NCBI GenBank assembly: GCA_051294905.1
Contig: CM119371.1
Location: forward strand, 20,896,001-20,960,000
DNA: 64,000 nt
Direction of reading: 5' to 3'
Source: Botryllus schlosseri
Lineage: Eukaryota
The position numbers were made by a program, and so were the translations under genes. Positions within the stretch are counted from its first letter, which is position 1; every line of letters begins with the position of its first letter. Positions 1 to 30,904 of this stretch are shown here, piece after piece. Under the pieces are notes generated by a model that worked only from the letters and a program-made list of their open reading frames with translations, was not told the origin of the DNA and ran no database searches.

Positions 1-179
1 CTTTTTCATACCTGCTTAAGTTGTTCACTCCCTTAATACAGGACCCTCACCGAAGGGAAATATCTACTTGGGCCCATTTAATAGTTACCTAACCAAGAGA
101 TCTATCGACTGACCTATCATTTTGAATGGATTACCATCTGTGAACTGCTGTATGACAGATTATAAAAAAAAATACCTCA

Positions 180-790
180 TTACCTCTTGTCACCGTAATA
201 ACACTCTTGCCATACCTAATTACCTCTGATAGTCCTATTAACACTCTTGACCTACCTGATTACCTCTAATAGTCGTATTAACACTGTTACCCTACTTTGC
301 CCAGACATTGCTTCATTCATTCATTCATTTGCTATCATTTAATTTTTCTTCATGTTTTCAGCTACAATTCGTTACAGACGGATGATGCAGAGACAATGTA
401 GGCATATACTCGTTTCATGGGGTTTTTATCAGACCACTTGACTTCCAAGGCTGTATCGATCTCTCCTATCCGACACCAAATACTGGTATTTTTCTCCTAT
501 TAACACTGTTGCCCTACTTCGCCCAGACATTGCTTCATTCATTCATTTGCTATCATTTAATTTTTCTTCATCTTTTCAACTACGATTTGTTACAGTCAGA
601 TGATGCAGAGACAATGTGGGCATACTTGTTTCATGCGGGTTTTATCAGACCACTTGACTTCCATGGCTGTATCGATCTCTTCTATCCGACATCAAATACT
701 GTGCATGCACATGTTTTCTGTATGATCATTGCTGCTGTCCATTTGTTCTGTATTTCTGTTGTATGAAAATAAACACGCACAGTCTCTCTC
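180..790 (+). repeat. Tandem duplication (~278-485 / ~498-701) plus short ~40-bp repeats, ending in AATAAA and a (CT)n tail; probable 3' end of a non-LTR retroelement
   Basis: Two ~205-bp near-identical blocks (acactgtt-ccctactt-gcccagacattgcttcattcattcattt...aaatactg). Followed by gaaaataaacacgcacagtctctctc. Confidence 0.55.
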
Positions 791-1619
791 AGTTGGTATT
801 CCAATCATTACTGCGCAGCAACATCAAGTATGAGTACTCGTAGTACAGCAGAGGTGACAATTCCGTCTTAGCTGTGCAAGTTCACGTACAATTGGTTAGG
901 TCAATGGCGCTTGCATGAGTTCAGAAATAGGTGGAGACAGCAAGAATTTCAGCGAATCGTTCGTGTTCTGACTGCATCCGGTTATTTAACGATAGCACTT
1001 TGGAGCTCTTCGTATGGCGCAAACATTCCCTCGGAGCTCCAATTATGAGCTTACAAATCACTATCCTACTTGTTCTTCTTACTACATTAAGCGTAGGTAA
1101 ACATCTCTTGTAAAGGTAAAGGTGGGCGTCAAGTTCTGGTACTTTCACCACAGCTATTTGCAATTATTAGTATGGCGTAAACTTTCCCTCGGAGCTATAA
1201 TTATGAGCATACAAATCAGTAACAGTAACCATTGAAATCAGTAACCAGAAGGGCGAATAAATAATGTACAAAACCGAAGCCTGTCAAAAACGCATGCAGT
1301 CTCCATAGTAACGGGCCTACGTCACACGGTGCCGGACGAATAGCCTGAGGAACTTTATTCGTCCGGATCCGGACGAGTAGCCACTGCCTTGGTCAATACA
1401 TATCACCCCATTCAGTATGGAATTACAAACCCAATACAGGTCAGTTCATAACCGGATCCGGATATTCAATGCAAAGCGATAAAGCAGAACCAATGACCAA
1501 ATGTAATTAAACATGTAGATTCACAACCCTTGATTTTTTTTTCGTGAAAAATGACAATACATATCGAATATAAATTACGATTGTTCAACCCTACCAAGTA
1601 TTCACGTAAGCGTGGTTTA

Positions 1620-2080
1620 TAACATTACATACAATGTGTCGGTGTACAAATGTTGGGTGTTTATGCACACATCGGTATGACCCGTAGACAACATCATCAT
1701 ACCATCCAGGACTTCGTTATTGCATCGCGAGGTCAATAAAATTGATTTTGTGTACTCAATCGGTGGCATAGACGACGGAAGGCTTGGAGATCCAATGTAA
1801 AATACAGACAAACAAACGGGTATATTTGTCCATCTTGGTTATTCACTCAACTACCATTGGTGCTCTCGATACAGCGAACGGTACATTATGCAACGCATAT
1901 CATTAGAGTGATATATCCACAGGTAAATATGGGGCCCGGCCACAATAATTGTACGACGCCGACAAATCGATGCACGCAAGGTGTGGTTGATGATAATTGT
2001 TTCATGTGTCAAAGAGACAGCACTCTCTTGTAAAGGTTAACAGATCCAGCAAAAACACATCATTTCGGATTACATTACCA
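1620..2080 (-). pseudogene. Polinton-type retroviral-like (DDE) integrase remnant, N-terminal half
   Basis: Minus-strand peptides CNPK*CVFAGSVNLYKRV, HTLRASICRRRTIIVAGPHIYLW and NNEVLDGM...QHLYTD. These resemble the Polinton integrase pattern YNPK..SFGG.NKLYK / RRKVIV.G...W / KLQTD. Stops and frameshifts present. Confidence 0.5.
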
Positions 2081-2160
2081 AATCGATTTCAATCTTAAAC
2101 CGAATCACTGGTGTTGAGAGTAGCGATACCCGATTTTTCGAATATTCATATCGACTTAGT

Positions 2161-2870
2161 AACGACGGACCGCCAAGTGAAAATGGTTTGTTGCTCAGTG
2201 AAAATGGTTTGTTGCTCAGGGAAAAAATATATTTTCAAGTGAAAATGGTTTGTTGCTCAGGGAAAAAATATATTTCCAAACGAAAAAGGTTTGTTACCCG
2301 GGAAAAAATATATTTCCAAGTGAAAACGGTATTGGTATTCAGGTAAACGACAGATTTCCAAGTGAAAATGTATTGTTACGATGGGTAAACGCCGGATCTC
2401 CAAAGGAAAATGATATTTTTACTCAGGTAAACGACGGACCGCCAAGTGAAAATGGTTTGTTGCTCAGTGAAAATGGTTTGTTGCTCAGGGAAAAATTATA
2501 TTTCCAAGTGAAAATGGTCTGTTGCTCAGGAAAAAAAATAGATTTCCAAACGAAAAAGGTTTGTTACCCGGGGAAAATGGGGAAAATATATTTCCAAGTG
2601 AAAAAGGTTTGTTGCTCAAGGAAAAAATATATTTCCAAGCGAAAAAGGTTTGTTACCCGGGGAAAAAATATATTTCTAAGTGAAATAGGTTTGTTACCCA
2701 GAGAAAAAATAGATTTCCAAGTGAAAAAGGTTTGTTGCTCAAGGAAAAAATAGATTTCCAAAGGGAAAGGGGTTTGTTACACTGGGTAAACGATAAATCG
2801 CCAAAGGACAACGGTATTTCTACTCGGGTAACGACTGACCTCCAGGTGAAAATGGTAATTTTACTTGGGT
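2161..2870. repeat. 41-42 bp tandem repeat array with a ~269-bp higher-order duplication
   Basis: Unit AAAATGGTTTGTTGCTCAGGGAAAAAATATATTTCCAAGTG recurs (e.g. at 2201 and 2242). Block aacgacggaccgccaagtg occurs at 2161 and 2430. ORFs 2250..2753 and 2564..2761 are by-products of the array. Confidence 0.9.
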
Positions 2871-3331
2871 AGGTAACGTATGTTTAGTGTCGTTGGTATT
2901 GTTAAACGTTGTCGCTTGACGTAGGTATACTATTACGAGTGTGAAAAGGATTTGCACTCGCTGTGCAGAGTATCGCGATAATGAACATATTTTTCGCGTG
3001 ACGAAACAAGATCGCTGTTTAAATGTTAATGCATACATTTCGATTACCGAGTTGTTGTACAATAGAGATGACTCTACATCAGACCGTGCTGTGTACTTCG
3101 ATTAAAACCACAAGACCGCATGTAAATCTATTCGCACAACTCCGTGATGTTGATATAGTGTTACTAAAATTAATCATTATCTATTTACACAACATAAAAA
3201 TAACAATTCATGTCGCAGTAAGTTTCTTGAACTCGTGCTTGATGAAAACGAATGGTGACAAGTATGCTTTTGAGTGAGATATAATTATTTAGAGCAGTGT
3301 TCTTCAACCGGGGTTGTCGTACACCCTAGGG

Positions 3332-4876
3332 CAGTGGTTCCCAACCTGGGAGGAATTCCCCCCTTGGGGGGAATTTTGCAATTTTTAGGGAGGAATTCGA
3401 GTTTAGAATTGTAACGGATTTCCAAAATTGTTCATGTTCGAACTGTTATGTAGTTAACCAGTTATATCCGTACGTATGCTTCTTATGGCTGTTTCATTTG
3501 CTGAAAGTATGTTCAAATGCTATTTGAAATTTCTTTTTCACATACAAATCCCTCCACCCCTTTTTTTAACTAGTTCAGATGTGCTGCAGTTCGCAAGACA
3601 ATTTTGCAAGCCAGCGACGGCCTCTCAATCTCATATATCCCAAGCAAGTAGGCCTAAATGTTGCGCCGAATCATTCACAACAAGCCCTCTAGTGAAAGTA
3701 TTTATCTTATATTTTCAGGTCAACATTTTCAGACAGTGACTAAATATTCCAACGTCATCGATTCAAGTCAAAGAGATCGCAAGCCTTGCTTTATTTTTAG
3801 TGAACTGCTACCCGATCGAAAAAAGACATGGTAAACTTGGTGCAATGTTGCCGAAACGTAACGGGTGTCCTAAATTTCAATGAGCTCCAGCAGGGAATTT
3901 GATCACGCGTATGTTATATATCAGGGCTGTAACCCAGTCACGAGGCTCCGAGTCACTAGTCAATCTCACTTTCATAGTTTTGACTCGAGTCAAGTCGGGT
4001 CATTCTCAATTCACCATTGAGTCAAGTCTTAGTCCAAGTCACCGAGCAGGCGCTCGAGTCTGAGTCATGGTATTATGACTCGAGTACGAGTCCAAGCCAC
4101 ACTCAAGTCAACACTGTTTGGTGATATTGAATGATTTGGATTTATGATATACTAATTTTCCTCATTTTGAGCAGTTTCTTGTCGCATTGTCAAGTACCAG
4201 GATCAATAGACGAAATTCCAATAGGGTGGTCACTTTACTGTTCTTCGAAATTACAATGAAATGTCGGTCTTGGCCGTTTTATAGTCTTGAGTCATATGGC
4301 TTGATTCGAGTCATGCACAATGACTTGAGTCCAAGTCGAGTCAATACACAGATTGTCTCGAGTCGAGTCGTTTCCGTATTTTGAGTAAAATGACTCGAGT
4401 CAAGTTGAGTTGTCAGAAATGGTGACTCGAGTCAACCTGGTCAACCCTGTTATATATGAAAGTCTATTGGCTAAATGCATACTATGCTATTGTTGGCTAA
4501 ATGCATACGCAAACTTGAGAATAAAATCGCGAGACCAGTAAATTCATGGATACTGATTCTTCACAGCAGTTATATTAGCGGTTGGTGCATGGTAAGCCGA
4601 AAACACAAATGAAAGTGTGGGGGTCTGTTGAGTCGAGCGTTCCAGAATTTGTGTGATTGGGGCCAAGACCATTGTTTTTGGAGGTCTACAAAGTGTTATT
4701 ACAGCACTGCTGGAAACAAACACTCGGTACCCGCCCGTCTTATTCTTTTAGTCAACAGGTGGCTGCGTGGTAAAAATAACCATTTTTAATCATCGGGCAG
4801 ATTTATCCTAAGGGGGGAATTTTAGCTAAAATTTCGGCCAAGGGAGGCACGAGATGAAAAAGGTTGGGAACCACTG
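3332..4876. mobile_element. hAT (Buster/Charlie-type) MITE nested in 3295-6101
   Basis: TIR CAGTGGTTCCCAACC / GGTTGGGAACCACTG. TSD CCCTAGGG at 3324-3331 and 4877-4884. Confidence 0.92.
3922..4449. mobile_element. hAT MITE of the GACTCGAGTC-rich family (third nesting level)
   Basis: Ends CAGGGCTGTAA / CAACCCTG. TSD TTATATAT at 3914-3921 and 4450-4457. Many GAGTC/GACTC subterminal motifs. Similar to 48327-48912 and 21621-23686. Confidence 0.9.
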
Positions 4877-6899
4877 CCCTAGGGTGTACCAGAATTTGCA
4901 AAGGGTGTACCACTCGGATGGGTGTACAGGGGTGTACCAGATCCGAATTACAATGAGCCGATGGCTAGCTATCACAAAGGCAGGTTTATGGGTTAGTACA
5001 GGTTGACGCACAGGTTAAGGAGCAATATGGTACGATGTTATCTCAAGTGTAATACTGTACACCGCTTGATTGTGATGTCATAAGCAAATATTTCTCCTAT
5101 TCATTTAGCCGTCGGCAATAGACCAATGGTTCCGTTTGGTGTTGGAAAGTATGCAGTTAACAAGCATGTGTTCGGCCAGTCATTTGTCTTTTAGTGATTT
5201 TTAAGGAAACCACCGCGATAGCTCAAACTCCTTGAATCGGTACTTCCTACCTGACGTTAATAAATACCGCAATGCACATAAATGAAAGGACGTAGCCAGC
5301 CAGGGTCGAAACAGCTTCCATGTTGAAATCGAGACCCTTTTGTTTTAAAATGCCGATTTTATATCCAATATTTTGACATACATTTGCAATTTAGTATTTT
5401 GGTATTAGTGATGCAAATTAGCGACAATAGACTGTGTATAGCGGCATACGATCTGAGGTTACTGACATCTCTTGCAGCCCGTGTGCTACTATCGACTGTG
5501 TAGGTGTGGCGCAGGCCTGATACGCAGTAGCCTGGTGCGCCTGCTATCATCGCTGATCTGAATTACCGCTTCTGCAGCAGTAGCTTTCCTACTCTCTCCC
5601 CAATACTGTTACATTTAGGTTGATTATCGTTCGTAATGCCATGCTGTTTTGGGGCTGACACGAAATAAATTCCAATTTGCGTGGCGGGCGGCCTAACTGG
5701 CTGCGAATAGACTCTGTGACCAAATACTATTTTATTCATATTCAAATTTTTTGACGGCAATAACTCCGCTTCTACTGGTTGGAATTGAACCAAATTTGAA
5801 GAACATCTTTTTTAGACAACCTAATACTTTCATGGGGTGAACAGAAAAATTTCAAATTTTTCGTTATTTATTTTTATATAATAAATAGAAACTTTCTTCT
5901 CCTGTAGCAATGCAGATACTGGTTGGAATTGACCCAAATTTGGTGTGTAGGCTTAAGTTAGGAAACCTAACAATTTTATCAAGTAGCAAGTACGATTTGA
6001 GAAAAAAACTCATTTTGGAAGACCCCTACTGAACAGGGGTGTACGAATTTTGAGCAAACGTTAAAAGGGTGTACCACGTCGAAAAAGGTTGAAGAGCACT
6101 GATTTAGAGTAGTGCCAGTTGGCGACCAACGAATGCAAATCGATCATGATATTACAATACACGCTTTCGTCAACATAACGACTAGGCGTAGAAACACTTT
6201 CACGTTTTTTTGAATAACTGGATTCTCGAGACTTGTTACTTGCACGATGTACCGTTGGTGTGCAGACTATAACGACCATTTTGTATGATAGTATGTTTTA
6301 GTTGTATTGTTGTGAGGACAACCATGTGATGACTCAGCACTTTTCGCTAGCAAAGTATATTGATTTGTGTGTAAGATGTAAGCACCGTAACTAGAAAACA
6401 TATGAACTCTATTGTTGGAGTAGCTGATTTATTGCTATGACATGGACATATCCTGAAGTCTTGGTTGGTTTGTTGTCTTACGAAAGATGAGGCGACCTCG
6501 GTATCGTAAATTGTGTTGACTAAACTCGGATGGATACCCCAATTGTGCTGGACTTACACATGGTATTCGCATACTGTACACTTACAAACTTTTGTGTAAA
6601 CAACTCTGATATTTCTGTTAATACTAGTTCTGTGTTGAACTATTTGATTATTAAGATACATGAACATCCATTCAGACAATAAAGTTCTTGAGGTATCGAA
6701 ACAGTTTGAAAGGGGCGCCAATCGTTGTGCAGGTTCGTAGCATGGGAATATCGAGTATTTTCGTGTACCATGAATATATTTCATATACCTTTGGTAAAAA
6801 ATGAGTTGCGCGGGGTAATCATACACAACCTAAAAAAGTTAAACTTGTAGCGTTTGATTGCCTACTTTTTATCAATGTATTTGTGATGTTAAAAGACGG

Positions 6900-7450
6900 C
6901 TGAGTTTACATTTACATTAAGCGGAGAAACTCAAGTAATAAATTTTACTCGTTTGAAAATATCGATCAATGGAGTAACAGCATCAATATGAGTGGTATAT
7001 TATTTTTCGCGATATGCAACCAATCTTCTAAGCATAACTTGTCAAAAAGTTATCATGTCATAGAAAAGCCGGTTGTTACGAATTCGAAAGAAATGTACTT
7101 CGATTATCACGATGATGGAAATTAAGATCAATGCCGTATTTCGGAGGTGGATATGTATCGTTTGGTATGTTCACCAATCACTAAATGTCGGTTAGTTAAA
7201 CGATACATTTACAAGTTTACCGAAATCTTGATTTACAAATGACAGCTTGATGATGTAAAGCTCAACCACTCAAATGTGTTTATTACAAAGTATTTGACAC
7301 AAACAAAATATCGAATGAAGACTTCGGTTTCATTACCAAGCTAATGAAAATTGTTTTCTATTGGATGGATATGATTTACCTTTAGAAAAACGATATAGAC
7401 CGATTAAGCGACGCTGTTTCATATCCGTCGAGTGAGTAAAATTTCTTTGG
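6900..7450 (+). pseudogene. Polinton-type (A32/FtsK-HerA-like) packaging ATPase remnant
   Basis: EFTFTLSGETQ followed by a frameshift to SNK (degenerate Walker A, cf. PFT..VAGPT.SGKT). Then EWYIIFRDMQP, LDDVKLNHSNVFITKYLTQ...KTSVSL (Walker B and motif C region) and IDRLS...YP, in the expected order. Confidence 0.5.
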
Positions 7451-7499
7451 AGTTCGGTTTCGTGAGATAATTGTTAGGGATTCAATCACATACAAGTAA

Positions 7500-8300
7500 C
7501 GTCTTTTAGTGACAGAGTATTGTGATGACATTTACTCTAGCGAATGACAACGGAAAAATTTTCGATTGCATTGTCGGTGTATGTGTTAGACAAATAATTC
7601 TAGTACACCTAACTATAGGATACATTCGGCAAACATCGTACAAATTGTTTCGTTGTGATGGTAACGACTTTCAGCGGTTTGGTTTCATGTCGGGAATTAT
7701 TATTTGGGGGTTCAAAAACAATCAATACTACAAATGAACAACAATGCAAAACACGTTAAGTGAATTACAGTGTAGCAAGTACTTCATTGATATTACGATT
7801 GTTGTGTACCAGACATTTCCAACTGAATTGAATGCATCTAGCAAACATATTCCAATTTACTTTTGTAATGATCAAAGTGTGTGAAATGATGCGAACAGAT
7901 TAAGCATTAATCAAGCGGCGGTATGTCAATTCGCCTAGTGTGATATCTTGACACCGGGAAATGTGCGAAAGTGTTTCAATTCCCACCGCAGATTACGACG
8001 ATAAAGTATTGTACCGGTTATTGTTCAACAAAGAAAACTGTTGTTTCATCGTTAGTCTTGGTTACTGGAGACAATTACATTTGTAAATTATTTCCTGATT
8101 TCCACAATACGCTGCGTGGTTTTTACGAACACGGCTTAATCTTCCCAATCAAAACATTTCAGATATGTTAATCTAGTTTTACAAATCGATATGTTAATAA
8201 CAATGTTTCTGAAAAGTTTGTTGGTATCGTAATAACCTTCAACACAACCCTGGTCTAATAATGTCATAATTTAATAATCAAGTCATGATCGACTATTACA
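7500..8300 (-). pseudogene. Possible Polinton minor capsid (penton) remnant
   Basis: Weak motifs: VEGYYDTNKLF (cf. PGYY), FEPPNN, and C-terminal KIFPLSFARVNVITILCH. Supported mainly by context. Confidence 0.3.
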
Positions 8301-9949
8301 AAATCTCATATGTCAAAATCAATGCGTCAATTCGTGAAAATTTTCAATATAACACCTTCGTTCGATTGTAAGAATTCTCAATTACGTTGGTCAGACATTC
8401 AAATCTCGTATACTCAAATGTAATGTGTTAATCTCAAACCGCGCGCCAAGTAGTAATTACTTCATCTTACAGTTGAATAAAAAATATGGGATATGGATAC
8501 AACTGAGTTGGTATGTTTGTGGGTTGTAGTGATTACTCGCGTAGTCTTGTCTACTTTTCATACGGATACTTTTTGTTTTGGTTTGGTGAGTTACTACAAA
8601 CGGATTGACTTACCAAGGTTTTTGTATTTTACTCCTTTGTGCATGGCGAGATGTTAAAATGTTGAGTTGTCATAGTGATAGTATTTCTGAAACTCTATTT
8701 TACAAACGGAAACGGAGTCGTGAATAGAGTTGTCAGTTTCAAGGATTGTTTCAAAGTATAATCTTGAAATGTGACTGGGTGAAAGTTGGTAGTCATGTTT
8801 GTCAAACCTATTTCAATTCACGCAATGTCAAAGTCCAAATATTTCATTCTGGATTATTTGGATTTACCTTTAGTACATCCGCGAATGGATTTGAAGTTGA
8901 CAAATTACCAAAATGATTGAATATTATCGGGTTAGAGATAGTTGGTATTGATTCTATAAGTGTTAAAACAGTGGCGTGGAATGTGTGAATGATCCGATGC
9001 GGGTGAATGTTGGCGTCAGTAATATTCAGGTTACGTTCGATTCAACAGATCGCGTTAATAGGATTTGTCAAAGGATTTGAGTTGGGTCGAATCAATACAT
9101 TCAAATACGATTCAACTTGATTTGTGTAGTGAGTTACATTTCAAGTTGACAAACTAACACATTGATTGAATATTTTCATGGATCTTATCACGCAACTAAA
9201 GTCAGCCACTATTCGGGAGGTGTGAAACATATAGCGATCGCGGGCAAGTGACAAATTGTTGGTTTTCGAATCACCGTATGCGACGGTTCTGGGACAAACT
9301 AATTACCGAAATATTACCTTGTGAGCGGGCATGAGGGATTGCTATGTCTGAAGCATTATCCGGTGAGTGGTCGTTGGATTTTAAAATGATATCACACCCT
9401 TTTGAATAAGCGTTCACTTCACAAAGGATTAGGGTTAGAGCGGAAATAAGTGACAATTTGTCGCTATTCAAGTTACCGACACTGGCGGTCTGTTATTCGT
9501 TACTTATTAAATCTTACGAGTGAAATCAAGCTCTGTGCCAAACTGCTTACGAAAATTTCACCGCGTGAGTGATCGATATGCCTGAAACACCAAGTCGCTA
9601 AAGATGGTCATGTCCGAGACATTATCTTGTGGGCGATCGCGGAGTTTTGCAAACTATTTCACAGCTATTTGAAGTGTTAATTTGTGACCGTTGTTATTGT
9701 TGATATTCGAATCGCCGTCTACGCCGGCTCTGTGGTAAACTAATTACTAAAGTAACACCATGCGACTGATTCCTAGATTTAGCAAACTATTTCGCACTGA
9801 ATGGACTAGTGTAATAATCGATACGATAGTAGCACGCGGTTGGCCGGGAAACAATTCAGCGCGCAGGTCATTCGAAATATAGGTCGCACGCACTGCGTAA
9901 TCCTCTTGCACAACAAGCCACGTTTCCGTTTGTGCGGTTATTGTTGGTT

Positions 9950-10436
9950 ACTCGTACATATTCAACACCGCGCGAGATATGCCTATACTCGAAAGTACGA
10001 ATCACCGCCACGCCCATAAGAACGCATGGTGAATCAGTAGAGACCCTGTAAGAATAGACGACAGACGAATCACCGCCACAGCCTATACGCGAAAGTACGA
10101 CGTGCGAGAGATGCCTATATCCGAAAGGGCGATTCACGACCGCACCCATAAGAACACATAGAGAATCACCAGAGACCGCGTAAGAATACATGACAGGTGA
10201 ATCACCGCCGCAGCCTATAGCAAAAAAGGCGAGTCACGACCACGAGTTATCACGGCGAATCACCACCGCAGCCTATACCCGAAAGTACGAATCACGACCG
10301 CACCCATAAGAACACATGGCGCATCACCGCCGAGAGGGGGGTCTAAAGGTACGATATGCCACCACGAGTTTCCAGGCGAATCGCCACCGCGCCCATAAGA
10401 GCCAATAGCCGCTCACGACCGATCTACTATACTACT
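9950..10436. repeat. GC-richer subterminal repeat region ending in a Polinton-like ACTACT terminus
   Basis: Recurrent GAATCACCGCC, GCCTATA..CGAAAGTACGA and CCCATAAGAAC motifs. Ends gatctactatactact at 10421-10436. Confidence 0.65.
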
Positions 10437-11338
10437 TGTACGAGCTGTATATCTAAAGTCTTTGTTTTAAATCAGCCGCAACACAAACATTTAAAAATGA
10501 GAATTCAATCCGTCACAACGAAATGTAGGCTATCGTATAAAGTTTATAACTGTGTCGTTACATTGTGCGTCTTCGCTTAGGCTGCAAGGTGTTTGAAGTC
10601 AGGCTGGCATGAAATCAACGCAGTGCGGAGCAGTTCGTTCAAGTGCTTGTGAGCAACTCAGGGAAGAATTCAGCTACCTAATATTATTACTCTCGAAATC
10701 TGTCTCCGGTTGGTAACTCGTGGCAAAGTTTTAGTGTTACGATTAGTTTTTTTTTTTAATATTGACTAACCTTGACAGATATGGACAGTGGCATGTATCC
10801 ACTATCACTGAATACAAGCACTTCTCATATTCTGCTTTGTAAGTTCTATTTTCCTGTTCATACTATCCTTCCTTGCAATTATCGCTCGACGACATTATTT
10901 TGGCCAAACTCGACAGTCATTGCTAGCCTTTACAGTACAAATGGGAGAGCCATGCTCGCCATTAGCCAGGCGATGATCGTGGCCTGCGGTAGCGTGATTA
11001 TTTAATTATCAGGCACATCATTAAACGCAGTGATTAATCATCGATTGATGACCAATGACCATGTACTATTTATACGGGTGAAACGTTTATGTGCACTCGA
11101 TTCAAGAATTCTCGAACCATGTAGTGTAGCGCCACCATCCAAGAAATTTTGCACTAGTTACGTAAACCATAAGGAAAGAAACAACACAATGCACATGTTG
11201 ATAAGACGGGATGAAACGCGTAAATTTATAATCAGGTTGCATCTCTCTAGCAAAATTGTGAAACGCATGTGCAATCAGCAAAGAGCTGCAATCAAAGACT
11301 CGAAGAGCCGTATTATCACCATATGTCTGAACGTGGAG

Positions 11339-11771
11339 CAGAGATGAGCGGATTTGAAATTTCCATGTCCTAATCCAATCCAAATCCGAACCTTCAAATC
11401 CAAATCCAAATCCTAATCCATAACTTTAACATATTCAAGTCCATGTCCAATCTTAATCCGACTCCAACTCGAAATTCAGAAAAAATACCAATTTATGCAA
11501 TGGAGGGATTCGAAAATTTTCTTTCACAACCAACAATTCACTTGATTCAAGATAACTTAGTGACCTTAAGTACATTAATAACTGATCTGAATAAAGTTTG
11601 TCACCATTCGCCACACGACATTTCAATCTCCCAGAAAATAGGTCAATCCAATCCTAATCCTAATCCTGATCTGTTCTGAAAAAAATGTCTAATCCAAATC
11701 CAATCCAAATCCGACAAAATTTCACAAATCATGTTTTTTCAAAACCTAATCCTAATCCATGCTCATCTCTG
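11339..11771. mobile_element. hAT MITE with AATCCA/AATCCT subterminal repeats
   Basis: TIR CAGAGATGAGC / GCTCATCTCTG. TSD ACGTGGAG at 11331-11338 and 11772-11779. Confidence 0.92.
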
Positions 11772-13039
11772 ACGTGGAGACGATAGCTGGTTACTAATCC
11801 TCACTGACTCAGTCAACAGTACTTAATATCCGTAGGAAACATGGAATCGATAGACTAGTATAGTGTTATCATTCATAATGAACAGACCGTGAATTTCGTG
11901 CTTCAGCGCGAGCTCGTGAGAATATGAATTTACAGCGCATATCATCTGCCTAATTACTGATAAGTTTCAAACTGCAACTGCGAATAGTCGGTGTTACCGC
12001 ATAGAAACTTATGATATCAAAATACGAACAAATAAATCCTATCATGCCTCAATAAACATAGTAGTATAGTAATATAGTCTATACTACTAGCTCACGTCAT
12101 GATTGCTTGTCGCGATGTTATATAAAAAAGAGATATAATAATAAGTCATGAAATGTTCTCGTCGTTTTACGAGAGCAGAACCTGTATGAAGGACGAGGTC
12201 GCGAAACTCGATAATGCCTATCTATACAGTAGCGTAGTGTGACGCGCTGCCCCTACGATGCTCGATCTTGCGGATATGCGCAATAAATAGAATAACGCGA
12301 ATGGTCTTAGGAGCGGTTTTAGTATACCAAGTTAAACTGCTTGCTTGTCATCACTGGGGCAGTGGAACGGGCTGGTTGTCTCATCTTCAGCCTCCATCTT
12401 CAGTTGTACTCACATTTATACTAGAAAAATCTGCCATTCCTGGCACCGCGCTGATGGACTTTCCCTAGCCCTGTCAATATGCCCGCAAACAAACAACCGC
12501 AAGATAGCTACCTCTATTTGCAAATCATTTCGTGTAGTTAGAAATCGAATCATCTGGATCCGGCAGTATGAATGTATACACGGATAAATTTTCGAATTTA
12601 CATTGTTTTACAGTTCCGACCTCAGAGCAACTATATCTCTATACTTAAAATCGATTTGTATTGTTCTCCCTTCAGGGGAGTCCCTGTGGTCTGTAAATTC
12701 ATTTTAGTCACAATAACTATGCGTAATCGCCTACATGCGACGAATTTCACGATACCGAAACAGTGAAATGTTTTCTTTTGTATTTTCGAAAATACGACTT
12801 CTGTCGCATCGTCCTCATTGCATCTTGCTCTACCCTGTCCATCACTGAGATCTCCGGAGTCGTCCTTATGATAAAAATTATTCAATTAAAGACAGCATCT
12901 ACCATCATAAGATCGTCGCTAGATGTCTGTATAGGGAAATGGATGATTTCATGTTTGCAATGTAAACAGATGCAAAACATCTGCGTCGAAGCAAATATCT
13001 CAAGTAAATATTATTCGTGAATATCTCATATAATTTATC

Positions 13040-13692: not shown

Positions 13693-14541
13693 CTAGTGAA
13701 CAATTTTTAGATTCACTACAAATTCCTTCTGCTGACACAAGCGCGGTCGGTGGATTTTAATATAAGTCGATTCCAGTGCAGACAGATGGAAATTAGTGCG
13801 GCCTCTACCTAATATCGAAAATCTTTCATCGCGATAGTTTTTAGCGCAAGTTACATTCTCAGCCAAATGCTTGCCGATGGCAGAGTTCATAGCCATGGCC
13901 TGATTACGTTCTAGTATTCGGAGATCAGTTACGGCTGCGTCTTCGCGAGAGTCCAATATGCGTGATCTAATAACGCTAGGGACATGTTGTTTGATGCGTT
14001 CCTGCAAGCGCTGAGTTGTTCTTCCCACGTACCGACAATCACAGTGGCACTTGAAATCATAGACTATATTGCTTGGTTGAAAAGCAGGAAGAACATCTTT
14101 GCGCGTTGCAGGAAGCAATTGTTTGGTGGTAAACACAACATTAGTTTTTACGTTATCGTAACAGCGATTAACAGCAGAAATCAATTGTTTTTCAAACCGG
14201 GAAGAGATGGGGCCCAGCCACGGCAAATGTATATATACATTTTCCTCAGACCGTGTGTTCGTGTTTTGTGATTTGTTGGGATTGAAATTACTGAGTTTTC
14301 TGTCCACAGAACTTTTGATGATGTGTTCGGGGTAGCCGTTATCGATTAGAATTTTGCGGATATATTCTAGCTCCGCGTTTAATTTTACATCCGAACAAAT
14401 CATCAAGGCTCTGTGCACCAATGTGCCAATCAAATTTAGTTTACGGCGATTCGGGCTAAAAGAATTCCAGCGTATGTAATGCCCTGTAAACGTTGGCTTC
14501 CGGTAAACCGAAGTGACAAAGCTAACACCCCGTTTTTCCAC
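13693..14541 (-). CDS. Penelope-like RT-thumb plus GIY-YIG endonuclease (partial, 282 aa open frame)
   Basis: VYRKPT, HLPWLG, NIVYDFKCHCDCRYVGRTTQRLQERIKQH, SAIGKHL, LESTYIKIHRPRLCQQKE. Confidence 0.9.
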   Translation of the reverse strand: MEKRGVSFVTSVYRKPTFTGHYIRWNSFSPNRRKLNLIGTLVHRALMICSDVKLNAELEYIRKILIDNGYPEHIIKSSVDRKLSNFNPNKSQNTNTRSEENVYIHLPWLGPISSRFEKQLISAVNRCYDNVKTNVVFTTKQLLPATRKDVLPAFQPSNIVYDFKCHCDCRYVGRTTQRLQERIKQHVPSVIRSRILDSREDAAVTDLRILERNQAMAMNSAIGKHLAENVTCAKNYRDERFSILGRGRTNFHLSALESTYIKIHRPRLCQQKEFVVNLKIVH

Positions 14542-16236
14542 CAGAACGTCTAAGAATGGTAACGAGTTAGCACGCTCTTTTTCAAATGTGAATTTTAAGA
14601 CGAGTGTAGAGAATTCAAGTTAACGAAGAAATCATCGAACTCTTAAACTTTGATAGCTTCCGGACCAGTGGTAGAAACAGTTGGTAGACGTGTCATTTGC
14701 TACGTGGTTTTCATATAAAACTGGACCTATAAATGAGGAATAGGTGGGCTGGATTTCAACATCAAGACACAAGACTTATAGTTCAGCATGTTGACGCACG
14801 ATAAGTTTACAGCACGACAGGTACTCCACACGATTTAAAGAATCTGTAAACTACGTCAATACTAGTCAGCACTCAAGATAACCGGACCACGAACAGACAT
14901 ATCGATTTATCCTACCAACACAGGCCAATTATGTTTTACCTCTTGTCCTTTTATATTATTATCTGTGTCTTATAGTGTGTGTGTCACTTGTATACATGTT
15001 TTTTAGGCAAGTGGATCTCAACCGTTTCCAGTTCGCGCTTCACATTTAATGCAACTTTCATTGTTAAACCCGAAATGAGAAAAAACGAAAAACGTACAGA
15101 GATGGAGCATAACAGCCAAGAATGGCGTAGTACGTGGTGCAGCGATCTCTAATTTCTATTTTTTATTGTTTACATAAATGTGGCATGTCAGCTAGTCAGG
15201 GCGTTGTACTTAGTAACGACAAATCATTGTACCCCTGCGTCTGCTTTTGCGCTTGAAACAATGTAGTATGCTCGCATCAATTGAGTTCTTCGAAAATCCA
15301 GTCCTCCATAGACCTACTAAACCAATTTATGCCTCGTATTGGACACCTGGGGTACAAAATTACGGACGTATCACGCCGTTTTCAACTACACTTAATATTG
15401 CCCCCAATCAGGCTTAATGTTCAGAACTACGGGACGATACACTCACAACGCACTCCGAATGGTCGGGCAGAAGGGCAGAAGATAGTTTCTACTCGGAAAA
15501 TATCCTGAAACTGTGGTAGAGGTACACTTTATTGGAACAACCATCACATGTAAGATTGTCATTATTCATTTAAAAAAATTATTTCTATAACATTGGTATC
15601 ATAACAATTATAAGATTTTTAGCTCCCCATAGCAACTAAAAGTGAGCCGTCTATTACTTATTGAATAGAGAACTGAAACAATATGAAATGCTTCGCTGTA
15701 AGCTTATGTAGACTAACACTGGGTTAGCGTATCGGAGGTTGAGGACCACTGGTGCAGGCCAAAGCAAAATACCGGAGTAAGATAGTGTTATACCGCTTCC
15801 TCCATTTTATCAAGGGAATATATTTGATGCTACTGTCTTAAATTGATGCTATCCTTGAAGAGATCTGGAATATATACATTTACCGCTTTTCAGGATAAAG
15901 ACTTAACGCAGACTCTTACAGATATCTAGTTTTCTACGGTCATAATATGGACGGTCAATTATGAAAAGCCATTTTTGTATACATTCCATAGTGCTCAGAT
16001 AAGTTTACATATGCATTGATTAGCCACATTACAATAGAGATACCGATAACCATTCAAGTTCAAGATAGGTTGTGCATCTGCCTACTGTCCATAGCGTATT
16101 TTCTGTACGAAGGCGACTGTTTTGAGTGTTAATACAAATCTTGTAACAATGACCGCGCTGATGATATTATTATAATACGTAATGGTGTATTATCCTTAAA
16201 CTGAGACACGTCCCCTTCTATGAGGTCATTCTAGTC

Positions 16237-27678: not shown

Positions 27679-28466
27679 ATTCAATTGTATATTGAAGTTC
27701 TGTACCTCCAAGAAGCTGATCAAGGAGTTATTTGGAAGTCAGAATCTCGATTTACCGGCAATATGGAAGTACGCTCAAATGTGTAAGTATGAGCCCAAAT
27801 CGAAAAGTCATTTTATGATAACATTTCAGTTAATGAGTGTTTAAAATCTGTTGCTCGAAAGTATCATCGTTCCCCAACCGGTGGTTTCACGGGCACACGG
27901 ACCGATGAGACACGCTAAAAAAACTTGAATATTCCAAATTTTCCTGTTGCGTACAACAATCGCAGGCTACAGCAATCCAAAGAAGAATATTTGGTTGCCA
28001 CCTTTACCAAAATAGAATTATTATTAAAAGGTTTTTGAAAAGGTGGATCCACCTGTAGACTTATATATCTGTGGTAGGTAGATCAAAGAGTTGAGCCAGC
28101 AAAAGATCTCCTGTTCTCAGCTGGACATTTGAGATAAGAGAACATTTTGCAATTTTTCATTCATCGGTTCCACAACTCCCCTATAGGAGATGGAATTGGC
28201 ATTTCGAAAAGAAGAGGGTACGATTTTAAACACAACCACCTCTTCCCTGCGTCCGGCGCTTCATAGTGCACATGTCATGAAACCACGGCTACTTATTGCA
28301 TGCATCGAATTATGACGTGTCCTCATCAATGTATATTTTTCATCTTCTTTGGAATCACTGAGAATGATTCGTGGAACCCCTGGTGTTTCGTGGAACACCG
28401 GTTAAGTAGAGATTACTAACCTACCGATAGACACTCCCGTCCTAACGCTTGGGCAAGCAGCATCTC

Positions 28467-30195
28467 TGGACCGCGAAAAGACTGCGGAGAAAGCTTGAAC
28501 GTCAGTGGAGAGCTTCTAAACTAGTCGTCCATAGACAGATGTACCAAGAACAATGCACTCGGGTGATCAGAATGATAGTCAAAGCAAAATCTAGCTACTA
28601 CAACAACTTGATAATGGAATGCAAGGATAACAAGAAGAAACTCTTCAGCGTAACGAAAAACCTCCTCGCAGAATCGAGCTCGGTCAAACTACCATCGAAT
28701 CATCCATCGTCACTAAGTCTGGCAAATTCATTTAACACGGTTTTCCGTGACAAGGTCGGCTCTATCAGACAATTTTTGCTTGCTCAGCAAGGCAACCGAC
28801 ACCGATCAGAAGGACAAACAAACGAGGAAAATTTCAACGGTGCCGCTCTGGATAATCTATCGCCTACTAATGTTGATGAGATTAAAGAGCTCATATCTGG
28901 TACGCGTCCAAAGACATGCGATCTTGATCCTATACCAACTTGGATTCTGATGGAATGTTTCTCGGACTTGGCGATTCTGGTCGTCGAAATCATAAATCGG
29001 TCGCTGTTAGACGGCGTGGTACCGCAATGCTTTAAGCGAGCTGTGGTGACCCCACTCCTGAAGAAGAACAGTCTTGACTCCGATCTGATGCAAAACTATC
29101 GACCGATATCGCAGCTTCCGCATCTCTCAAAACTTCTGGAAAAGGTTGTCGCCAAACGCATTGTGGACCATGTGACCGAGTACGATCTTCACGATATGAA
29201 TCAGTCGGCATATCGTGCCGGACACTCGACTGAAACAGCAACGTTACGTGTCAACAATGACATTGCTTCTGCCCTCGACAACGGAAACATGGTCGCTCTA
29301 ATCATGCTGGATCTCTCCGCTGCCTTCGATGTAATCGACCACGTTCTATTGGTGGAACGGCTCCATCATGTATTCGGAATCTCCGGCGTGGCATTAGAAT
29401 GGGTAAAATCATATTTGAAAGATAGAATGCAGTGCGTATCTGTGGATGGTGTCCGTTCGTCAGAGATTCAAATCGAATCAGGAGTACCACAGGGTTCTGT
29501 TCTCGGCCCATTGCTCTACCTCATGTACACGAAGCCAGTCGGAGATATTTGCCGTCGCCATGGTTTCTTCCACCATTGCTACGCGGATGATACACAGGTT
29601 TACGGTCTTATGAGAAATAGCAATGACTGGGAGAGCGTGTCATCCAAGTTACAGCGATGTCTTATCGATATTGAGCTCTGGATGACACAAAATCGTCTCA
29701 AGTTGAACAAAGAGAAAACTGAACTCAAAATTTTTACGCCAACCAGACGCCCCATCGACCACAATCAATTCACCATCAGATTCGGACCAGACACCATCCA
29801 AGCCAAGACCTGTGTACGTAACCTAGGTATTCACTTTGACGGCATGCTCTCAATGGAAAAACATATCGACTATACATCAAAGATCTGTTTCATGTATATC
29901 CACAAGATCAGTCGAATCAGGAACTACCTATCTGAGGATGCATGCAAAGCCATAATACTGTCGCTGGTGATATCACGGCTTGACTATGGAAATGCTCTGC
30001 TTTACGGGGTAAACCAAAATTGCATCGACAGGCTACAAAAGATCCAAAACATCGCTGCTCGTTTGGTAACTCGGTCAAGGAAGCGTGATCACGTAACGCC
30101 GATTCTTAGATCCCTTCATTGGTTACCCGTGAAATTTAGGTCTGAATACAAGCTTCTTCTGTACGTCTTCAAATGCATGGAGGGAAGTGCACCAA
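28467..30195 (+). CDS. LINE ORF2 reverse transcriptase, 5' part (partial)
   Basis: NYRPISQLPHLSKLLEKVV, QSAYRAGHSTETA, LDLSAAFD, GVPQGSVLGP, YADD, LKLNKEKTE, LHWLPV. No internal stops. Confidence 0.93.
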
Positions 30196-30904
30196 TAGGG
30201 TGGAGTGAAAAATGCAAATTTTTGAATTTCAAAAAAGGGTCTTGATATGTGGTGCCAAATAGTAAACAAATAAATTCTATCATAATTTTGGGTTCGTACA
30301 CCCTCTAGTGGTCGTGCAATTTCACCGAACGAGCCAAAAACAGCTAATTTCATCATATCTTGATCATCACTTACACTAGAAAGTCAGTTTTGGGCTTAAA
30401 AGATGCAGAAGCAACATGTTTCTATCTCACTTCCATAGAACTTACTCTTAAAAATGAACAGAAAAAAAGTTACAAGCAAATTTCTGATTTTATAGGTAAA
30501 ATTGAGCACGGAAGCAGTGGGTAGGATGTCAAAAGCGTGTAGTGATTGATCTTACGACTGAGCAACATACCCTATCAATTAGAACTACTTTTCAAAACTT
30601 TCTCAAACAAATGAACCCCCTCCAAGCATAAATAGGGCTCGGGCATCGAATAGAGACTGCTAAAACTGTATTTAAAACAGCGTCCATTGGTAGTGCAGCG
30701 TCACGATATCGGTAAGTCTATAACAACGGCCCTCATGAGATTTTTTTCCAAAATGCTGTCGTAGGGTGTGTATCATATTTGTCACAAAGCTGAATGAAAG
30801 CACAAAAATTGAAAATACACATTCAAAACACAAACATCAATTCTATACTGGAAACAGAAATTTTTTGTAGCAGTATCATATGAGTATCAGTGTGCACAAA
30901 CATT

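Follow-up and report, generated by a model that had tools for sequence, protein, structure and literature searches.

The question raised by positions 1620-10436 of a 64,000-nucleotide stretch of the Botryllus schlosseri genome (GCA_051294905.1, contig CM119371.1, positions 20,896,001 to 20,960,000 of the forward strand; the whole stretch is referred to as the window) is whether this DNA conceals the decayed genes of a virus-like Polinton/Maverick element. Such a fossil, with remnants of an integrase, a major capsid protein, a packaging ATPase and a penton protein in an unusual order, had been proposed from the letters of the sequence (the sequence-only reading). According to the analysis described here, window 1389-10436 very probably belongs to a mobile element that is non-autonomous and palindromic over almost its full length; what survives of this decayed copy in the interval is a loop remnant and the right arm. 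The favoured overall reading, to which a probability of roughly 0.85 is assigned, is that of a non-autonomous palindromic satellite that is moved by Maverick enzymes.

A palindromic repeat family with Maverick-type ends

Full copies of the family, represented by seven inverted pairs fetched from the genome, are about 13-13.5 kb long and consist of two inverted arms of 5.5-6.7 kb that flank a loop of 0.3-1 kb. The inverted repeat makes up more than 90% of the element. Within the seven copies, the two arms are 96.7-99.9% identical and align in one to three collinear blocks, with high-scoring segment pairs picked greedily and without overlap. The arm segment at window 6110-9000 has at least 85 matches in the 495-Mb genome, a number that is a lower bound because 40 of 3786 candidates were scored, and many of these matches form inverted pairs about 9 kb apart. 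Copies of the subfamily comprising C7, C12, C13 and C9 are 97.5-99.2% alike, and copies of different subfamilies align in only two to six blocks at 85-93%. As the arms are collinear inside every element, any structural feature in which one subfamily departs from another is seen in mirror image in the two arms. The full copy L011 has no open reading frame (ORF) longer than 123 aa, and no transposase ORF was found in the centres of the seven full copies and L011. Long inverted arms with partly tandem sub-repeats and a small or absent middle correspond to a foldback-type layout.

The window copy ends at position 10436 with the sequence ...ACTATACTACT, closing in ACTACT. This end and the subterminal repeats at 9972-10420 are there, as pointed out in the sequence-only reading, and the end is one member of a terminus family spread through the genome. 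Its elements start with AGTAGTTA... and finish with ...ACTACT, giving termini of the form (AGT)2...(ACT)2, and AGTAGT opens all ten aligned ends. A perfect, locus-specific 6-bp target duplication (GTCGTA, CATGCC, GCCGTG, TTCGAG, CGCGTC, GACATG, CCTATA, ATCGCT, ATTGGG and GACATA) flanks 10/10 elements with both ends located, a count that leaves out the eleventh element, C3, whose ends were not located. In the available text of PMC8097293, 5'-(AGT)2//(ACT)2-3' ends and perfect 6-bp duplications are given as marks of vertebrate Mavericks and are credited to Kapitonov and Jurka 2006. The window end carries the Polinton/Maverick end motif, defined as (AGT)2...(ACT)2 or (AG)3...(CT)3. The 6-bp duplication is established at the level of the family; the window copy has lost its left end, and the flanking TGTACG (10437-10442) is a candidate target duplication seen on a single side.

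A census of the 17-nt terminus pattern with at most one mismatch yielded 310 forward and 312 reverse matches in the genome, compared with 22 and 20 for the reversed control. Among the first 100 matches listed, 39 plus/minus pairs were formed and 22 matches were unpaired. Specifically, 19 of these pairs span 12.5-14.1 kb and nine span more than 18 kb.

Four long terminus pairs, B1 to B4, were fetched. Maverick/Polinton copies with coding capacity are B1 (21.8 kb) and B2 (22.1 kb), which have the family ends and terminal inverted repeats (TIRs) of 0.6-0.8 kb; B3 and B4 are built as composites from palindromic arms. Relatives with Polinton architecture, which the sequence-only reading had suggested seeking in the genome, thus exist as the coding elements B1 and B2 with their 6-bp duplications. 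The integrase ORF of B2 contains rve at 2.9e-16 and Chromo at 4.3e-8 (Pfam), and the ATPase ORF shows weak Pox_A32/AAA matches. A polymerase-like ORF of 1089 aa in B2 has 30 homologues at E<=3e-53, of which four carry PF03175, and its Atlas score against PF03175 clusters is 0.96, which serves as a lead. A PDB sequence search with this ORF gave a chance match only (E=0.041). A capsid-like ORF of 432 aa has an Atlas score of 0.98 with clusters in which 14-30% of the members contain DJR-like_dom, likewise a lead. B1 and B2 are each interrupted relative to the other by multi-kb insertions (B2 4527-10653; B1 6865-9677), and the polymerase-like frame of B1 is split over three ORFs.

The first 20-22 nt of the palindromic elements are identical to those of the coding Mavericks of the same genome. 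What the window element has in common with the coding Mavericks is limited to ~120 nt at the terminus, the type of subterminal repeat and a single 83-nt patch. Subterminal repeats of the same type are found in the coding Maverick ends (B2 465-629 vs C7 960-1064). The 83-nt patch has 91.6% identity and links window 9825-9905, about 530-610 nt from the end, with B2 (L029:2493-2575), about 2.1 kb from the end; it was not seen in the comparison of B2 with C7. The family thus has the termini and the duplication of the coding elements and none of their genes, as is characteristic of a non-autonomous Maverick derivative.

The terminus of the window copy, whose reverse complement is AGTAGTATAGTAGATCG, differs from the common family form at positions 7-9. 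Over the terminal 120 nt (10317-10436 vs L026:338-457), the window copy is 79% identical to the coding element B1 and only 54-71% identical to seven palindromic or composite ends. The arm body (6102-9971), in turn, is nearest to copy L002, with 96.65% identity across 3.7 kb, and the end of this copy is 54% identical. Because the terminal 120 nt and the arm body have different nearest relatives, ends and arm bodies have different histories. Judging from these alignments, either the ends may have been exchanged or the terminal repeats may be evolving very fast.

The loops of most palindromic subfamilies contain a small ORF of ~91 aa with a conserved Met start, found in C7, C12, C9, C13, C3 and C17 as well as in B3 and B4 (for instance L024:7614-8018, L015:7545-7835 and L022:7580-7912). 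Across two subfamilies that are 56% identical, 52 of the 97 aligned positions are invariant, and the substitution pattern is of the coding type. No Pfam family was found for this ORF. The C7-type protein matches the B2 ATPase in BLASTP (E=3e-5) over 59 aa around a Walker-B-like DD motif, the C17-type gave nothing, and a profile-profile comparison returned a probability of 1.5% at E=0.035; ATPase kinship is not claimed. An AlphaFold model built from six sequences has a mean pLDDT of 34 and is unusable. The small ORF was not found in the window locus or in its closest relative C11, and therefore it cannot explain the interval 1620-2080 that had been read as an integrase. Two copies of the small ORF are present in a 21.5-kb element located between one terminus pair (L035-L037; G000:C2:28391601-28413900). 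This element has four arm copies in alternating orientation and is concatemer-like; a 100-N gap lies inside it and its assembly is perhaps unsure.

Long inverted arms, internal tandem sub-repeats and a middle with little or no coding sequence, which together form the classic foldback build, would also be expected if the family were a foldback-type DNA transposon from a different superfamily, related to FB/MULE, P/Galileo or hAT. The Maverick-like ends would then have to be coincidental, which is improbable given the 6-bp duplications at all ten elements, the first 20-22 nt shared with the coding Mavericks and the similarity of the window end to B1. The lack of a transposase in the centres of the seven full copies and in L011 also speaks against such an origin.

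The window locus and copying between its arms

The features of the window locus are listed below with their coordinates and strand.

1-1388, no strand: right end of a ~5.9-kb MULE-type transposon that splits the inner left arm; C11 homology stops upstream at locus position 5481 and resumes at 1389
1389-1956, + strand: innermost palindrome arm, with 94.5-95.6% identity to each of the two inner arm ends of C11 (9048-9614, 10514-9947); no Pfam match
1957-2168, + strand: part of the central loop; the match, at 94.5-95.6%, carries on into the C11 loop (9614-9825)
2176-2790, + strand: 41-bp (and 20-21-bp) tandem array within the right arm; all full copies examined have this array in each of their two arms
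2791-3294, + strand: right-arm body, ending with the duplication ATTTAGAG (3287-3294); as far as ~3298 it has 82-88% identity to five other copies
3295-6101, no strand: MITE (miniature inverted-repeat transposable element) with CAGTG... inverted ends; 8-bp duplication ATTTAGAG at 3287-3294 and 6102-6109
3331-4877, no strand: nested 1547-bp insertion with 34-nt inverted ends; duplication CCTAGG at 3325-3330 and 4878-4883
6102-9971, + strand: outer right-arm body, non-coding; repeat matches genome-wide and no protein signal
9972-10419, + strand: subterminal tandem repeats with ~32-nt units and a higher period of 132
10420-10436, + strand: right terminus, matching the family terminus with positions 7-9 changed

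The right arm of the locus runs from 2197 to 10436 and includes the 41-bp array, the MITEs and the terminus. After position 2168, ~1.2 kb is missing, made up of the remainder of the loop and ~1.1 kb of the inner right arm, and homology resumes at 2238, which corresponds to C11 11054. The left arm lies upstream of the window (C1:20887877-20891481); two stretches of it, of 2148 and 1062 nt, have 99.3% and 96.9% identity to the right arm. It breaks off at the point corresponding to window 7024, and neither its outer 3.4 kb nor the left terminus was found within 30 kb upstream. The ~5.9-kb MULE-type transposon (L017:5481-10000 plus window 1-1388) is inserted in the inner left arm. Its ORFs L017:6978-8345 and 5544-5843 match MULE (7.6e-19), a ZSWIM1-3 RNaseH-like domain (1.9e-40) and ZSWIM3_N (2.2e-11). 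This transposon also encodes a PHD domain, and there is a 218-bp tandem repeat in its right part (window 276-701). The window copy is dead and unable to move, because the left outer arm and terminus are lost, the MULE-type transposon and MITEs have been inserted, ~1.2 kb is deleted and the terminus is altered.

The segment 3295-6109 had been judged foreign in the sequence-only reading, and this is borne out by five other copies (L002, L004-L007), in which ~3298 is contiguous with ~6102. The outer MITE is also present at the identical site in the left arm, with the same duplication except for one changed base. The nested 1547-bp insert is found in the right arm only; in the left arm the positions corresponding to 3331 and 4877 adjoin each other. 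Among 40 scored of 1244 candidates, the 79-nt junction between element and MITE is full-length only at the two arms of the window locus, and the other 38 matches end at the target site. One MITE at one site in both arms, found at this locus only, means that one insertion was copied to the other arm. Sequence was thus copied between the arms at the window locus, and the mirrored MITE is direct evidence of such exchange. Either conversion between the arms in place or copy-back in the immediate ancestor would account for the copying. Because arms exchange sequence, arm identity cannot be used as a measure of the age of a copy.

The 64-kb window as a whole is repeat-rich, animal-type DNA with four stop-to-stop frames of at least 130 aa. 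A frame of 599 aa at 28446-30245 (+) matches RVT_1 at 3e-32 and is of the non-LTR retrotransposon type. Another frame of 308 aa at 13693-14619 (-) has a weak GIY-YIG match (E 3.6e-4, below cut-off) and may be a Penelope-like remnant. Rfam and tRNA scans of window 1-12000 found nothing.

Tests for viral gene remnants

The absence of long ORFs, from which the proposal of a hidden virus had started, is upheld. The longest stop-to-stop frames in 1620-10436, both of which run across tandem repeats, are one of 183 aa (2202-2753), accounted for by the 41-bp array, and one of 121 aa (9868-10233).

All 212 stop-free six-frame pieces of at least 30 aa from window 1469-12066 were scanned against Pfam at E<=1. 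None of the 212 pieces reached the curated cut-off, and the best E-values of 0.004, 0.0056 and 0.0093 belong to unrelated families and are at chance level. No match to rve, A32/FtsK-type ATPase or DJR/capsid families was obtained among these pieces, with PF21738, PF16903 and PF04665 included in the library. The rve domain of B2, found by Pfam at the E-value given above, serves as a positive control for the integrase. For capsid and penton the Pfam negatives are weak, because the intact capsid-like ORF of B2 itself was missed.

Furthermore, all 30 ORFs of B2 with at least 90 aa were compared by tblastn with the 24-kb locus, with full coverage of the results for the window locus and C17 and coverage in part for C7 and C11. 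Nothing below E=0.1 fell in the four claimed intervals, where the best match comprises 11 aa at E=4.9. Only two B2 ORFs gave matches at E<1e-3, one of them in the terminal repeats and the other being the 83-nt DNA patch. The best match of the B2 integrase to the locus has an E-value of 0.72, or 4.9 within the claimed integrase interval, and the 1089-aa polymerase-like ORF had no match at the locus.

Codon periodicity was assessed from the variable sites of an 8-copy alignment across window 6278-8891, a segment that takes in the proposed ATPase and penton. A 3-base periodicity is absent in 24/24 alignment windows over 6278-8877 (minimum p 0.28). The small loop ORF, used as a positive control, shows 42/21/50 variable sites by codon position (p 0.003).

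None of the four claimed segments gave a significant profile or protein match, and the ordered motif remnants are not supported by Pfam, by tblastn with B2 or by codon periodicity. The 'integrase' at 1620-2080 consists of the innermost arm and the loop, and the 'capsid' at 2875-6690 of the 41-bp tandem array, MITEs and arm sequence. The 'ATPase' (6900-7450) and the 'penton' (7500-8300) lie in the non-coding, aperiodic outer arm body. Of the components expected of an autonomous Polinton, no polymerase, rve integrase or virion module was found at the window element by Pfam, tblastn or periodicity.

A degraded Polinton/Maverick provirus of an undescribed lineage, with frameshifted integrase, capsid, ATPase and penton remnants in the order proposed, is very unlikely in view of these results. 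The Maverick-type end and the subterminal repeats on which it draws are genuine, but every full copy has this sequence in two inverted versions around a unique middle of 0.3-1 kb, which is not the layout of a provirus. The 11-aa tblastn match in the claimed integrase interval stems from the B2 integrase, but at an E-value of 4.9, and none of the 30 B2 ORFs gave a match below E=0.1 in the four intervals. Pfam is blind to the polymerase-like and capsid-like ORFs of the resident Mavericks and could miss very old fossils, and fossils older than the palindromic family itself may escape the tests altogether. Against this stand the 212 pieces without rve, ATPase or capsid matches, although rve is readily detected in B2, the 24 aperiodic alignment windows and a 'capsid' interval that is mostly tandem array and MITEs. 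What stands of the dead Polinton copy is a dead mobile element with Maverick ends; the provirus with gene fossils in unusual order falls, which does away with the false claim that a provirus whose genes stand in a novel order is hidden here. Host segmental palindromes or assembly artefacts, which might be invoked because large near-perfect palindromes are difficult to assemble and two fetched copies contain a 100-N gap, are refuted by the target duplications. The copies number in the hundreds, are scattered over many contigs and have defined ends, and their 6-bp duplications are perfect and specific to each locus.

Mobilisation, origin and comparison with known systems

Insertion of the palindromic elements would most likely proceed through a Maverick integrase supplied in trans, because the termini, subterminal repeats and 6-bp duplication are those of coding Mavericks and genes of their own are absent. 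The element ends probably also act as origins for the protein-primed polymerase of the helper. Palindromic defective derivatives of protein-primed linear replicons are known from yeast killer plasmids ('hairpin plasmids') and from adenovirus incomplete genomes. By analogy with these, the simplest source of the mirror-image build would be a copy-back (strand-switch) event on a linear replicon. The palindrome would then be maintained by arm-to-arm copying, as shown at the window locus.

Several points weigh against the reading as a Maverick-driven satellite. The arms have no sequence in common with B1 or B2 except the ends and one 83-nt patch, and among copies the terminal 120-nt identity is only 45-93%. 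Mobilisation in trans is deduced from ends and duplications. The arm sequence may stem from genes that have decayed past recognition. Pfam missed the intact polymerase-like and capsid-like ORFs of B2, and the capsid and penton test relies on tblastn from one resident lineage, with C7 and C11 covered in part. A PF03175 family search of the genome gave no match, and its control was likewise silent, so that this search is uninformative.

A more far-reaching and tentative possibility, less likely to be right than wrong, is that the palindromes are integrated copy-back (snap-back) defective Maverick genomes, which would arise through strand switching by the protein-primed polymerase. Helper functions would replicate and perhaps package them, and the helper integrase would insert them again. 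Each cycle would regenerate a perfect palindrome and may renew the ends from the helper. Such an origin would explain the mirrored subfamily differences, the locus-specific MITE in both arms and the mismatch between ends and arm bodies. If true, it would amount to a 'defective interfering' lineage of a DNA virus, hundreds of copies of which are fixed in the germ line of an animal.

Palindromes of 13 kb that have Maverick ends but no genes, in hundreds of copies, would make an unusually large and abundant class of hitch-hiker on a transposon of virus-like type. Maverick replication, which has so far only been modelled, can be read out from them in a natural setting with respect to the cis termini that suffice, strand switching and end repair. 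What the window locus contributes is a copy in a decayed state, a MITE at matching sites of its two arms, and relationships that disagree between end and body. In a literature search that did not extend to Repbase reports and Kapitonov and Jurka 2006, no nearly palindromic gene-less, foldback, copy-back or non-autonomous Polinton derivative was found.

The palindromic elements resemble Mavericks/Polintons, including B1 and B2, in their (AGT)2...(ACT)2 termini, the 6-bp duplications and the TIRs with subterminal repeats. They differ in lacking polymerase, integrase, ATPase, protease and capsid genes. In B1 and B2 the TIR measures 0.6-0.8 kb, whereas in the palindromic element it accounts for more than 90% of the length, and the arms are unrelated in sequence. 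Butterfly polintons, as far as the available text of bioRxiv 10.1101/2025.02.07.637071 describes them, carry gene-bearing TIRs of ~2 kb in which hexon and adenain are duplicated. From this description, they have in common with the palindromic element a Polinton TIR that is expanded inward and duplicates internal sequence. The butterfly elements are still coding, with a large unique middle, whereas the palindromic element is duplicated almost entirely and its arms are non-coding.

Among foldback elements, the target duplications are 9 bp in Drosophila FB and 7 bp in Galileo. The palindromic element differs from both in its Maverick-type ends beginning with AGT AGT and its 6-bp duplication, and no P- or MULE-type transposase partner has the ends of the palindromic element. 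The resemblance lies in the very long inverted arms with tandem sub-repeats, the mostly non-coding sequence and the many copies, the foldback build being exemplified by Galileo in the available text of PMC3573991. MITEs and other non-autonomous DNA transposons are similar to the palindromic element in that only the cis-acting ends are kept and the autonomous family is outnumbered. Unlike MITEs, which are shorter than 1 kb, the palindromic element is ~13 kb long and palindromic, and it has a small conserved loop ORF in other subfamilies.

The hairpin plasmids of yeast and the incomplete genomes of adenovirus offer the parallel for the proposed origin. In these, one end of the replicon is duplicated in inverted orientation, both ends are valid origins, and propagation depends on a helper. 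They are extrachromosomal, whereas the palindromic elements are integrated and dispersed in hundreds of copies.

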